NCBI GenBank assembly: GCA_964402535.1
Contig: CAYOCH010000004.1
Coordinates: 1-53,818 of the forward strand
DNA: 53,818 nt
Reading direction: 5' to 3'
Source: an uncultured Candidatus Saccharibacteria bacterium
GTDB taxonomy: Bacteria; Patescibacteriota; Minisyncoccia; Phycocordibacterales; Phycocordibacteraceae
The notes under the pieces were generated by a model. The model was not told the DNA's origin. It saw only the letters and a list, made by a program, of their open reading frames with translations, and searched no databases. A program made the translations under genes and the position numbers. Below, piece after piece: positions 1-3,081 of the stretch. The number at the start of each line of letters is the position of its first letter. Within the stretch, counting starts at the first letter, position 1.

Positions 1-583
1 AAGCGGTGGATTATGCGGCTTAATTCGTCGATAAACGAAGAACCTTACCAAGGTTAGAAATCCAACTGCATCCTTGTCGAAAGATGAGGAGCCTTCGAGG
101 GTGTTGGACAGGTGATGCATGGTCGTCGTCAGTTCGTGGTTTGAACTGTTCCCTTCAGTGGGGTAACGAACGCAACCCCCGTTGTCTGTTGCCTATATGG
201 CCAGGCGAGACTGCTCCCTCACGGGAGAGGAAGGTGGGGATGACGCCAGATCAGCATGTCCCTCTGATACCTTGGGCTGCACGCATAATACAATGGGCGG
301 TACAACGGGTTGCAATGCCGTAAGGCGGAGCTAATCCTTTAAAACCGCCCCCAGTACGGATTGAGGTCTGCAACCGACCTCATGAAGCCGGAATCGCTAG
401 TAATCGCAGGTCAGCCAAACTGCGGTGAATACGTTCTCGAGTCTTGTACTCACCGCCCGTCAACTCAAGGGAGCTGGGGGTGCCCGAAGGTCTGCCTCGC
501 GCAGGACTACGGCAAATTCAGTGACAAGGAGTAAGTCGTAACAAGGCACGGGTAGCGGAAGCTGTTCGTGGAACATATCCAAA
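1..583 (+). rRNA. rrs: 16S rRNA, 3' ~580 nt (the gene starts upstream of the window); divergent CPR-like sequence; 3' boundary approximate
   Basis: Universal 16S blocks are recognisable in order: AACGAAGAACCTTACC, GCATGGTCGTCGTCAG, AACGAACGCAACCC, GGAAGGTGGGGATGACG, GGAATCGCTAGTAATCG, GGTGAATACGTTC, CACCGCCCGTCA, AAGTCGTAACAAGG (533-546). Helix 45 with a GGAA loop follows (547-570). Several universal positions are substituted, e.g. GTACTCACCGCCCGTCAA. Confidence 0.9.
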
Positions 584-694
584 TTGGAATCGCTATCGCC
601 CGAAAGGCATAGCATGTCGATCATCTCTTCGGAGGTGGAGAGATAGCATTCGTCTCTAAACGATGCTCGGAAGCCGGATAACGTAACCCGGTGG

Positions 695-725
695 CGTTCG
701 AGAGCCGCATATGAGCTCTCGAACG
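695..725 (+). repeat. Perfect 11-bp stem hairpin in the post-16S spacer (possible processing stem)
   Basis: CGTTCGAGAGC (695-705) and GCTCTCGAACG (715-725) are exact reverse complements separated by a 9-nt loop. Confidence 0.5.
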
Positions 726-784
726 GGACAGAATAGGCGGAACAAAAGAGCGCATCACATCTTTCAACACACGATCACGTCAAC

Positions 785-806
785 AACGGCCGCAGGGCCG
801 TTTTTT
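785..806 (+). terminator. Intrinsic terminator downstream of 16S
   Basis: Stem CGGCC (787-791) / GGCCG (796-800) with loop GCAG, followed by TTTTTT (801-806). Confidence 0.7.
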
Positions 807-868
807 GACTTTTACGAGTTCAAGCTCTAAAGTCGTGCGCAGGCAGTTCTACTCGAGAGGAGATACTC

Positions 869-1390
869 ATGACCACTTTGGCACTGGAAATGAAAGCCGT
901 CTTGCGTTCGTCCCTTGACGATACATGGAAGAGGGAAGAAACAGACTTCAATTCGCATCTCGCGGCATGGAAAGAAAGACAAAAGAAGAAAGCGCTCGAC
1001 GCCATTGCCGTCTTGCCAATCAGCATTAAGGCAGCGGCCGAGAGCAACAAGTCGAGCCTGACAGTGCGTGTCGAGATCAGTCATCCCGATACGTATTCTG
1101 AAGCGTACAAAGTATTCCGGGTTCCACACGAGTTCGGGCAGCCGGTCGATCCCGGCACCTACCTCACGTTGAATAAGTGCAGGGAATTGCCCGACGTCAG
1201 TCGACCGATCGCGCGGTGGGCCTTACGGAATGGGTTCAGCGTTCAGGTCCGGAAGTGGAACGACAGGGATGAACAGCACGTACGTCGTCATGATGCCGTG
1301 CACGATGTCGATACCCATGTCGATTTTGTGGTGCCGACCGCAGGGCGTTATAAATGCCCTCTGCAGGAGGGGCTCTGCATCTCGTGGTAG
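869..1390 (+). CDS. Hypothetical protein (173 aa) inside the rRNA spacer island
   Basis: ORF-track ORF. GAGGAGA (857-863) lies 5 nt before ATG 869, and a terminator hairpin follows the stop. No family recognised. G+C is lower than the flanks (28 of 60 in line 901-960). Confidence 0.6.
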   Translation: MTTLALEMKAVLRSSLDDTWKREETDFNSHLAAWKERQKKKALDAIAVLPISIKAAAESNKSSLTVRVEISHPDTYSEAYKVFRVPHEFGQPVDPGTYLTLNKCRELPDVSRPIARWALRNGFSVQVRKWNDRDEQHVRRHDAVHDVDTHVDFVVPTAGRYKCPLQEGLCISW

Positions 1391-1404
1391 CAGAGTATTG
1401 AAAC

Positions 1405-1431
1405 GCCCCGGCTATGCCGGGGCTGCGTTTT
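1405..1431 (+). terminator. Intrinsic terminator after the 173-aa ORF
   Basis: GCCCCGGC (1405-1412) / GCCGGGGC (1416-1423) with loop TAT, then TGCGTTTT. Confidence 0.6.
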
Positions 1432-1631
1432 GCCCGAGATGGAGGAGCGCGAGACGCTCGACGGCACGCCGCCAGATCCGCCTCTTGTTCTTGTGCCGGC
1501 GGAGCTTCTCATCAGGCGTCGATACGCGGCTTTCGTGTATCCGCTTGCTTTCACGCATCCGGGCGTGCGGGTATACCATCGCTCCCTACAGTATAGGGCG
1601 CTCCATGAAGATTGCTGGAAGAGGGAGTGGA

Positions 1632-1640
1632 TTATCCACA
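1632..1640 (+). promoter_or_regulatory. Perfect DnaA-box consensus 9-mer TTATCCACA
   Basis: Exact TTATCCACA, 41 nt upstream of the TATACT hexamer at 1682. The motif is certain; its function is not. Confidence 0.35.
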
Positions 1641-1681
1641 ATAGAACTTACGTCTATTGTATTCGGCATATCGTAATCATA

Positions 1682-1687
1682 TATACT
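1682..1687 (+). promoter_or_regulatory. -10-like hexamer TATACT, 8 nt before ATG 1696 (leaderless-type promoter)
   Basis: TATACT-gaatatgc-ATG. Confidence 0.4.
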
Positions 1688-1695
1688 GAATATGC

Positions 1696-2385
1696 ATGAA
1701 AGCGATTGAACGAGAAGAAGCCGTCAGGCTCCGTAGGGTTGAAAAGCTCGGCTACGGCGAGATAGCAAAGAGATTGAACGTTGCCAAAAGCACGTTGTCC
1801 CGATGGCTGGAAGATTTGCCTCTTTCTGACGCGCGCATCCTAGAGCTGCGGCGACAGTCATGGGGCAAGGGTGAGGCCAAACGCGAGAGGTTTCGTCAAA
1901 CGATGCGCGTCAAGCGCGATCTCAAGGAACAGAAACTTTACGAAGAAGTGAAGTCACGTTTGTCACGCGTGACCGAACGCGATACGTATGTCGCCGGGTT
2001 GATGTTGTATGCGGCGGAGGGAGATAAGAAAAGTCGGTATGAAATAGCTTTCTCCAACACAGATGTCGCTCTGGTGAGATTCTTCTCACGATGGTTGACG
2101 CGATATCTCGGAATCGATGCACGTTCTCTCAAGATTCAGCTTCACCTCTATGAAAATATGGAGATACCGGCTGAGGAATCATATTGGCTCAAAGAACTTG
2201 GGTTCGGCCGGAGGCAGCTGTGCAAGAGTCAGATAAAGAAAGTGCATAAAAATGGCTTCAAGTATCAGGATGTTGTCCGACATGGGACGTGCAAATTGTA
2301 TATCGGTGGCGGTGCCGAGAAAGCTGAGCTCATGTTGTCTATACGAGCTTTTTTTGATACATATAGTAGGCAAATGCGTGTGTAG
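1696..2385 (+). CDS. LAGLIDADG-type homing endonuclease-like protein with N-terminal HTH (229 aa)
   Basis: N-terminal HTH LGYGEIAKRLNVAKSTLSRWL. LAGLIDADG-like block YVAGLMLYAAEGDKK, followed by an I-CreI-like alternation of basic and hydrophobic segments. It sits in an rRNA operon spacer, a typical niche for this family. Family call by eye only. Confidence 0.55.
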   Translation: MKAIEREEAVRLRRVEKLGYGEIAKRLNVAKSTLSRWLEDLPLSDARILELRRQSWGKGEAKRERFRQTMRVKRDLKEQKLYEEVKSRLSRVTERDTYVAGLMLYAAEGDKKSRYEIAFSNTDVALVRFFSRWLTRYLGIDARSLKIQLHLYENMEIPAEESYWLKELGFGRRQLCKSQIKKVHKNGFKYQDVVRHGTCKLYIGGGAEKAELMLSIRAFFDTYSRQMRV

Positions 2386-2532: not shown

Positions 2533-3081
2533 ATGAAGAAGCGAGCGAAGCGCATCGCCGCTCTTGCGAGTGAGACGGAGACGCTCATCGTCGCCGGGCT
2601 GGCGCTCGTGCTTGTCGCCGGCGGCGTCTACTATTACCTCTCTTCCGCAGTGCAGCAGCAGGAGCGCGCACCGGTCGTCACGGAGGCTGCGCCCGCAGAG
2701 GTCGCGGTGCCCTTCACAGAGCTCGCGCGCGGTAGCAAGTCGACCGTGAAGACGCGCGTTAATTACTTGATCCGCACGCCTGAGGACTTGAAGAAGCTGT
2801 GGAAGATGGTCGACGCGACGAGCACGCCGCCCAAAGTAGACTTCACTCGCGAGACGGTCATCGCCGTCTTTGCCGGCAAGGCGCCGACCGCAGGTTACGC
2901 CATTTCCGTATCACAGATCACCGACGCTGAAGAGCGCATGGTCTCGATCACGGTCGCCAAGCCCGATCGCACCTGCATGACGGCCAATGTGCTCACCATG
3001 CCATACGAGGTGGTGAAGGTCCCGACCACGTCGCTCCCGCTCACGCACGAGGACGTTACGGTCGCGAAGAGCTGCCCCTAG
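2533..3081 (+). CDS. Membrane-anchored PrcB C-terminal-domain-like protein (182 aa)
   Basis: N-terminal TM LIVAGLALVLVAGGVYYYL. The C-terminal part (VIAVFAGKAPTAGYAISVSQI...MVSITVAKP...MTANVLTMPYEVVKVP) resembles the PrcB_C family pattern. Confidence 0.5.
   Translation: MKKRAKRIAALASETETLIVAGLALVLVAGGVYYYLSSAVQQQERAPVVTEAAPAEVAVPFTELARGSKSTVKTRVNYLIRTPEDLKKLWKMVDATSTPPKVDFTRETVIAVFAGKAPTAGYAISVSQITDAEERMVSITVAKPDRTCMTANVLTMPYEVVKVPTTSLPLTHEDVTVAKSCP

Follow-up and report, generated by a model that had tools for sequence, protein, structure and literature searches.

The seg and mob genes of phage T4 encode homing endonucleases; they are free-standing and spread by intronless homing, and SegB is encoded within the T4 tRNA gene cluster. 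These enzymes are of the GIY-YIG or HNH type and are phage-borne. A LAGLIDADG scaffold is also found in the transcription factor WhiA (DUF199), which combines a degenerate pair of LAGLIDADG domains with a C-terminal helix-turn-helix (HTH), is encoded by a single-copy core gene and has lost the metal-binding Glu and the neighbouring Lys. Within bacteria of the candidate phyla radiation (CPR), homing endonucleases are ‘not unusual[ly]’ among the protein genes in rRNA spacers (Lui et al. 2021, PMC8172020), and insertions inside the rRNA genes have been catalogued in a study that never mentions tRNA (Tsurumaki et al. 2024, PMC11270868). On tRNA-anchored genes combining an HTH with a LAGLIDADG-type domain, no paper was found in the literature. 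Here, such a gene is described from an uncultured Candidatus Saccharibacteria bacterium. The window is a stretch of 53,818 nucleotides (nt), contig C4 of a genome (G000) of 703 kb in 19 contigs with 61% G+C; close relatives of its proteins bear public names that point to Candidatus Kaiserbacteria / Paceibacterota, which belong to the ultra-small CPR (Patescibacteria) bacteria. The open reading frame (ORF) 2 of the window at 1696-2385 (+), encoding 229 amino acids (aa), lies between the 16S rRNA gene and the gene for tRNA-Ile(GAT), and it is probably a free-standing homing endonuclease gene anchored to the promoter or 5′ flank of this tRNA gene. A previous sequence-only reading had taken the whole spacer (584-2375) as a mobile insertion.

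In the ORF2 protein, residues 1-42 form an HTH, residues 45-89 a long helix and residues 91-229 a LAGLIDADG domain with a single motif. Pfam, NCBIfam and PHROGs returned HTH matches alone, with HTH_23 at E 1e-5 in Pfam for the N-terminal part, and HTH proteins ranked first when residues 1-42 were searched by structure. A profile of 34 family members matched motif 2 of the I-DmoI LAGLIDADG domain (GLYVAEGDK), catalytic Glu included, at E 1e-4; the corresponding motif of ORF2 is GLMLYAAEGDK, running from G101 to K111 with the Glu at E108. The AF2 model (pLDDT 92.8) has the α-β-β-α-β-β-α core of this fold. In an all-against-all structural search, VIA-align matched ORF2 to 7qsu, 2vs8, 1mow, 8dy9, 3e54 and 3hyj, and for residues 91-227 the top matches were an intein endonuclease domain, I-DmoI, E-DreI, WhiA and I-Vdi141I, at moderate scores. 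The earlier description of the gene as LAGLIDADG-like agrees with profile, model and structural search. Low-TM rows of OmpA/MotB-like proteins from Foldseek were rejected as noise caused by the long helix. The residues G101, L102, L104, Y105, E108, G109, K111, N121 and D123 were invariant in 120/120 orthologues, which fits a working active site, and at least 90% of 34 paralogues have E108 as well. With one motif per chain, the enzyme would act as a homodimer.

As the N-terminal region gave weak HTH matches to the N-terminal regions of IS3, IS630 and IS21 and one public name of the family is ‘transposase-like protein’, ORF2 could also be taken for the transposase of a small insertion sequence. 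This explanation is scarcely credible, since neither a DDE nor another transposase catalytic domain is present and the C-terminal two thirds are LAGLIDADG-like. Moreover, neither terminal inverted repeats nor a target-site duplication were found around 1634-2361, the segment that carries ORF2, and the copies of the family keep to one kind of site, the 5′ flank of tRNA genes.

At the locus, this segment of about 728 nt (1634-2361, +) lies between a -35-like and a -10-like box of the tRNA-Ile promoter. On its left side, 1615-1633 (CTGGAAG...GTGGATT, +), consisting of the -35-like TGGAAG at 1616-1621 and 12 nt of spacer, was aligned with positions -39 to -20 of the empty-site promoter of a relative (G459) with a score of 23, compared to a maximum of 20 in 300 shuffles. 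On its right side, the -10-like TATAGT (2362-2367, +) is retained 8 nt before the tRNA and now forms codons 223-224 of ORF2. The spacing TATAGT-N8-tRNA equals the TAGAAT-N8-tRNA of G034, and CAAATG directly before the tRNA is common to both. From the left-flank match and the right-hand spacing, the inserted segment is delimited to about 1634-2361, which splits the two boxes; the -35-like box now stands 740 nt upstream. TATAGT may still serve as the -10 box of the tRNA-Ile promoter. The stop codon of ORF2 (TAG) is located at positions 8-10 of the tRNA.

The segment begins with a conserved 5′ block (TTATCCACAAnAGAAC, 1632-1647, +) with an 8-bp inverted repeat at 1638-1660, followed by a putative promoter of its own, TTGTAT (1657-1662)-N17-TATATA/TATACT (1680-1687), which includes the TATACT hexamer pointed out before. 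Both the block and the -10 box were conserved in 5/5 occupied loci of the genus. The -10 box is placed only 8 nt before the ATG of ORF2, which suggests a nearly leaderless message. No + strand terminator was found within the inserted segment or before the tRNA. A fossil tRNA fragment upstream of ORF2 was considered and rejected, as local alignments of 1580-1700, 806-870 and 1391-1600 with tRNA-Ile stayed within the range of shuffles. ORF2 is intergenic and lies outside any intron or intein, with no intron model matching in 584-2600 at E up to 10. In the search for intron or other Rfam models that had been proposed for the spacer, cmscan of 1-2600 (E up to 10) returned only the 16S rRNA, the tRNA and chance-level matches, and no group I/II intron or other Rfam family in 584-2375.

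To compare the slot that separates the 16S rRNA gene from tRNA-Ile, the tRNA-Ile(GAT) loci of 60 genomes of the genus were retrieved. In at least 15 genomes, the 16S trailer is followed within 84-150 nt by an intrinsic terminator, a promoter and tRNA-Ile(GAT), and the endonuclease gene is absent. The promoter at such empty sites reads TGGAAA-N17-(TGn)TAGAAT with an extended -10 (general form TGGAAA-N17-TGnTAnnAT), and the tRNA follows 8 nt or more downstream. Because terminator and separate promoter are present at empty sites, the 16S rRNA and tRNA-Ile genes are read as separate transcription units with or without an insertion, and they were already uncoupled in the genus before the insertion took place. 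The claim that the insertion decoupled the 16S rRNA from its tRNA is therefore not upheld. The ORF2 segment was present in 5 of about 27 loci of the genus (G000, G006, G010, G478 and G471), and an orthologue occupies the same site in G054, which belongs to another family. What remains of the proposed mobile insertion is accordingly the presence or absence of ORF2 at one exact site among relatives in the genus; neither the decoupling nor the whole-spacer island belongs to it.

Homologues of ORF2 were detected in 41/61 sampled relatives with 0 to 5 copies per genome. A second family copy in the genome of the window (contig C16, 9032-9697, -; L034) is about 30% identical to ORF2 and lies between tRNA-Arg(TCG) and tRNA-Gly(GCC), ending 8 nt before the Gly tRNA. 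The same tRNA cluster on C16 also has a 1.2-kb gap between tRNA-Pro and tRNA-Gly(TCC). When 33 family ORFs were examined for their position relative to tRNA genes, 24 had their end at -14 to +38 nt relative to the first base of a tRNA in the same orientation, one ended at +94 nt and one ran 64 nt into tRNA-Gln; five had a divergent tRNA about 100 nt from their start, and the remaining two were located at contig ends. Paralogues were found far from rRNA genes at tRNA genes for Gly, Arg, Gln, Phe, Trp, Val and Ile(TAT). The link of the element is consequently to a tRNA gene and not to rRNA, as had been assumed.

The protein tree has one well-supported clade per tRNA identity, with Ile(GAT) and Ile(TAT) as sisters. 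Since related genomes share tRNA labels, the tree displays long-standing site fidelity and not independent events. In a conserved Arg-Gly-Pro-Gly tRNA cluster, the gene occupies different gaps in different genomes. Four of the five divergent cases have a tRNA split by a group I intron. In these loci (L028, L030, L033 and L035, around 2050-2500), one clade of the family is oriented away from a tRNA gene ~100 nt distant, whose anticodon loop holds a group I intron of 214-252 nt; Rfam (RF00028) recognised the intron in two loci, and the intron mode of ARAGORN in all four. The endonuclease of this clade may serve the ORF-less tRNA intron in trans. The family is large and unannotated; its public labels are ‘hypothetical’, ‘XRE regulator’ or ‘transposase-like’, and this branch by itself counts more than 450 protein clusters.

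The composition of ORF2 is atypical. Its G+C content is 0.491 (1.8th percentile of 690-nt windows) compared to 0.61 for the genome and 0.548 for ORF1, the other long reading frame of the spacer. Likewise, GC3 amounts to 0.55 for ORF2 and 0.66 for ORF1, with 0.78-0.83 for the neighbouring genes. The lower G+C content that had been ascribed to the spacer holds for these two genes, which are below their flanks, but it is not uniform across the spacer, with values of 0.57-0.61 over 1051-1650.

According to the homing endonuclease reading, the ORF2 enzyme would cut the intact promoter or 5′ flank of tRNA-Ile alleles that lack the gene, repair off the occupied allele would copy the gene in (intronless homing), and the split site would render the occupied allele immune. 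With the element’s own promoter and no terminator before the tRNA, read-through would probably supply much of the tRNA-Ile transcription, and ORF2 would take its stop codon from the tRNA. tRNA-Ile(GAT) is an essential single-copy gene, being one among the 45 tRNAs of the genome, and genes for RNase P RNA and transfer-messenger RNA (tmRNA) are present. An extension of this reading, which is tentative and rather doubtful, is that the endonuclease gene is hard to lose because it has captured the expression of the sole tRNA-Ile(GAT), RNase P turns its message into a non-stop mRNA and the nuclease is low and self-limited. The host would then depend on transcription through a selfish gene whose promoter feeds tRNA-Ile(GAT). 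The cut of RNase P at the 5′ end of the tRNA would strip the last three codons and the stop codon from ORF2, and each processed message would be a non-stop mRNA to be handled by the genome-encoded tmRNA. The same logic might apply to the whole tRNA-anchored family in Patescibacteria.

The main rival explanation considers the ORF2 family as domesticated WhiA-like regulators (LAGLIDADG scaffold plus HTH) of the adjacent tRNA promoter that are no longer mobile. In its favour, these genes stay consistently at the tRNA 5′ flank, and the divergence of ORF2 is akin to that of the flanking murD; the conserved inverted repeat upstream of the ORF2 promoter and the public annotation as XRE-type regulator are also in line with it. 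However, most genomes of the genus have tRNA-Ile without ORF2, copy numbers range from 0 to 5 with patchy occupancy of tRNA genes, and both G+C and GC3 of ORF2 are atypical. Furthermore, the metal-binding Glu and its neighbouring Lys, which WhiA has lost, are invariant in the 120 orthologues. A regulatory role in place of homing is hence judged unlikely.

Several observations weigh against the homing endonuclease reading itself. The Pfam LAGLIDADG models (_1, _2, _3) matched none of the 34 family members with E values up to 0.1, a Foldseek search of the PDB with the complete ORF2 model returned no LAGLIDADG structure, and when the family was compared by hhalign with the canonical LAGLIDADG_1 ORF of G006, no similarity was seen (probability 0.1). 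Given that no Pfam model fits and hhalign gave no match, ORF2 is classed by sequence as an outlying branch of the LAGLIDADG superfamily outside the Pfam LAGLIDADG families. Concerning the insertion site, no clear -35 remnant was found in the left flank of G006, G010 and G478, and the promoter boxes are consensus readings. With regard to mobility, ORF2 shares 70% nucleotide identity with its G006 orthologue and the flanking murD 66%, which is a similar divergence, and a tree of MurD from 17 loci, made to look for repeated gains, came out as a polytomy that is compatible with a single old gain and later losses. In view of this divergence and the MurD tree, the claim is limited to the anatomy, the fold and motif, the presence or absence at one site, the fidelity of one clade per tRNA and the atypical composition, and recent mobility lies outside it. 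Cleavage and transfer (homing or gene conversion), as well as promoter use and the dependence of the tRNA on read-through, are inferred.

In most genomes of the genus, nothing lies in the slot that extends from the 16S terminator to the tRNA-Ile promoter; seven carry a small minus-strand ORF there and five the ORF2 orthologue mentioned above. Other occupants are a PaaX-like gene for a regulator with a Cas2-like middle domain (G465, L043:842-1426), an APH-family phosphotransferase-like gene together with an ORF1 homologue (G544, L071:2393-3115) and an ORF1 homologue alone (G610). In G476, G030 and G020, the slot is 570-1050 nt long. On the basis of these sequences, the slot is a small hot spot that gathers unrelated genes. 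In G610, tRNA-Ile(GAT) (L073:942-1017) is inverted relative to the 16S rRNA gene, the ORF1 homologue, a prcB-like gene and murD. In G471, trailer and terminator are followed by a segment of 265 nt that shares 66% identity with window 1442-1662, then by the ORF2 orthologue and the tRNA; as ORF1 is missing from this order, the ORF1 cassette (about 805-1404) with an extra terminator is seen as an added piece in the genome of the window. The slot of the window is by this comparison a mosaic of three independent genes, namely, ORF1, a 55-aa minus-strand ORF and ORF2.

The ORF1 cassette (805-1390, +) consists of a promoter-like TTGACT-N17-TAAAGT (805-833), the purine box GAGAGGAGA (855-863) and ORF1 (869-1390, 173 aa). 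An HMMER scan of 1.8 billion representatives yielded five full-length homologues with 38-43% identity, and from this small number ORF1 is considered a real but rare family. It was detected in 3/222 genomes of the genus, each time between the 16S rRNA gene and tRNA-Ile(GAT). No match was obtained in Pfam, NCBIfam or PHROGs, in agreement with the earlier view of an unknown family, and no homologue was found in 400 sampled genomes of the class. A word-based search returned ORF1 alone, phage records contained no match, two metagenome scans gave no relatives and matches in the ESM Atlas were below 0.9 and unnamed. Judged by its homologues, the family is rare and fast-evolving, and its alignment varies too much to define a search pattern. 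ORF1 is missing at the four other loci of the genus with an ORF2 orthologue (G006, G010, G478 and G471), and its homologues in G544 and G610 occupy the slot without a gene of the ORF2 family. The two genes occur without each other in relatives, so that ORF1 can no longer be regarded as a partner of the endonuclease.

Between ORF1 and ORF2, a small basic protein of 55 aa with the core RRHKNKRRIWRR is encoded at 1415-1579 (-) and transcribed away from the tRNA. A TATACT -10 box is located 10 nt upstream of its ATG. The frame is open and the start conserved in seven genomes of the genus (50-60% identity), where differences by codon position amount to 401/380/690 and 301 codon pairs are synonymous. 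Owing to this codon-position bias, the ORF behaves as a real gene. There are three called proteins in a public collection and no Pfam match. This conserved gene, as it appears from the alignment, had been overlooked in the sequence-only reading. A GC-rich hairpin with 8 GC pairs and a U-tract on the + strand (1405-1432) is placed as a two-way terminator of ORF1 (+) and the small ORF (-), and the stop codon of the latter (1412-1414) is inside this hairpin. G471 has a single terminator at the equivalent position. An 89-aa ORF on the + strand at 1430-1699 was dismissed since it is not conserved and G471 has stops in all + frames there.

Upstream of the cassette, 584-775 (+) is the 3′ trailer of the 16S rRNA, an external transcribed spacer with conserved hairpins. 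It is 82-84% identical to that of G006 (window 452-771 was aligned at 84%) and 75-90% identical to those of about 20 genomes of the genus. A strand of 38 nt in the trailer (727-764) is complementary to the leader directly 5′ of its own 16S rRNA gene, with an exact 20/20 complement in the core (L039:1944-1963) and a cofold energy of -155.8 kcal/mol; by this pairing, the two form a processing stem of the classic leader-trailer kind. Folding again gave the hairpins at 593-614, 623-644 and 695-725, which bears out the dense structure described for the first 200 nt. In an alignment of the trailers of 13 relatives, compensatory changes were present in 14/26 consensus pairs, and two trailer hairpins including 695-725 are kept in this way. 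The intrinsic terminator closing the 16S unit (785-806, +) has a 7-bp GC-rich stem plus a T-run, and it was found at the equivalent place in relatives without inserted genes. In total, two terminators had been described for the spacer and terminator-like hairpins were refound at 785-802 plus T-run and at 1405-1423. Given identity, leader pairing and covariation, 584-806 is to be read as an ordinary tail, which ends a separate 16S transcription unit and lies outside any island, and not as the beginning of one at 584.

These findings bear on the explanation by a single composite mobile island, spanning the whole of 584-2375, that carries ORF1 along with the endonuclease and broke an rRNA-tRNA operon. 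ORF1 and ORF2 are indeed adjacent, on the same strand and both lower in G+C than their flanks. Nevertheless, such an island is very improbable, as 584-806 consists of the conserved trailer with its terminator, ORF1 and ORF2 are set apart by a terminator and a conserved minus-strand gene, either gene occurs without the other in the relatives listed above, and empty sites already have terminator and promoter.

The 16S rRNA ends with ...ACAUAUCC... in place of ...CACCUCC..., and by this tail it lacks a canonical anti-Shine-Dalgarno (anti-SD) sequence. Positions 570-583 of the window are the 16S tail GGAACAUAUCCAAA without the CCUCC anti-SD, and the tail is identical in G006. In a crude and rough Shine-Dalgarno survey upstream of 869 long ORFs, weak enrichment of GGAGG/AGGAG and some enrichment of TAAT near -11 were observed, a pattern that hints at leaderless starts. 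ORF1 has its purine box 6 nt upstream of the ATG despite the absent anti-SD. The loss of the anti-SD motif in a part of Parcubacteria has already been published (PMC9297842).

The 16S rRNA genes of two relatives are interrupted at positions where that of the window has no insertion. In G006, 936 nt (L037:2166-3101) with a classic LAGLIDADG_1 ORF (192 aa) and an Rfam match to group-II-D1D4-1 are inserted at the equivalent of 451/452, which is concealed by the end-to-end Rfam call of this gene. In G034, an insertion of ~765 nt (L042:404-1168) is located at the equivalent of 539/540.

In the window, the 3′ part of the 16S rRNA gene covers 1-583 (+; Rfam RF00177, 488 bits, model 927-1533), and its 5′ part is found at the end of contig C17 (9969-10818). 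C17 and the start of the window share an exact overlap of 55 nt, so that the gene is complete and interrupted only in the assembly. tRNA-Ile(GAT) is located at 2376-2451 (+; ARAGORN) with an Rfam match at 2376-2448. Rfam, ARAGORN and ORF calling confirmed the 16S end, tRNA-Ile, ORF1 and ORF2 where they had been placed. The 23S rRNA gene is on contig C9 without an adjoining tRNA, and the rRNA genes are unlinked as had been stated. Between tRNA-Ile and a murD-like gene, a membrane-anchored protein of 182 aa with a PrcB_C domain is encoded at 2533-3081. This gene is present in G544, G610, G007, G475 and G464 and absent in G006, where murD starts 10 nt past the tRNA. The genome also carries tRNA-Ile(TAT) and only two tRNA(CAT) genes, and from this set a UAU anticodon may decode AUA, in place of a CAU tRNA modified with lysidine. 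The ORF2 endonuclease family has a separate clade at the tRNA-Ile(TAT) gene of relatives.

The locus corrects the idea of an element that uncoupled an rRNA operon and points to a habit different from insertions in rRNA genes, as each member of the family settles at one particular tRNA gene, in its promoter or 5′ flank. Provided that the enzymes are active, tRNA promoters would be homing sites and the elements would shape the expression of tRNA genes in genomes of about 0.7 Mb. The family would then also be a source of new nucleases with long targets, and the probable targets could be read from empty alleles.

Compared to LAGLIDADG enzymes of the I-DmoI (PDB 2vs8, 1b24) and single-motif homodimeric I-CreI type, ORF2 has in common the LAGLIDADG-type helix with its terminal acidic residue and the α-β-β-α-β-β-α-type core, with one motif per chain. 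It differs by an additional N-terminal HTH and a 45-residue helix, by the lack of a Pfam LAGLIDADG match and by its location outside introns and inteins, and it is known here from sequence and model. Unlike WhiA, ORF2 has one motif with the catalytic residues kept, its HTH is N-terminal, and its distribution across genomes is patchy and multi-copy. The homing endonuclease genes in CPR rRNA genes come from the same host group, as illustrated by the classic LAGLIDADG_1 insertion in the 16S rRNA gene of G006. Those insertions lie within or between rRNA genes, whereas the anchor of ORF2 is a tRNA promoter and its protein belongs to a different family with an added HTH. Like the seg and mob genes of phage T4, ORF2 is intergenic, stand-alone, located beside tRNA genes and present or absent at the same spot among relatives; in contrast to them, it is of the LAGLIDADG type and resides on a bacterial chromosome within a tRNA promoter, with the end of its reading frame inside the tRNA.

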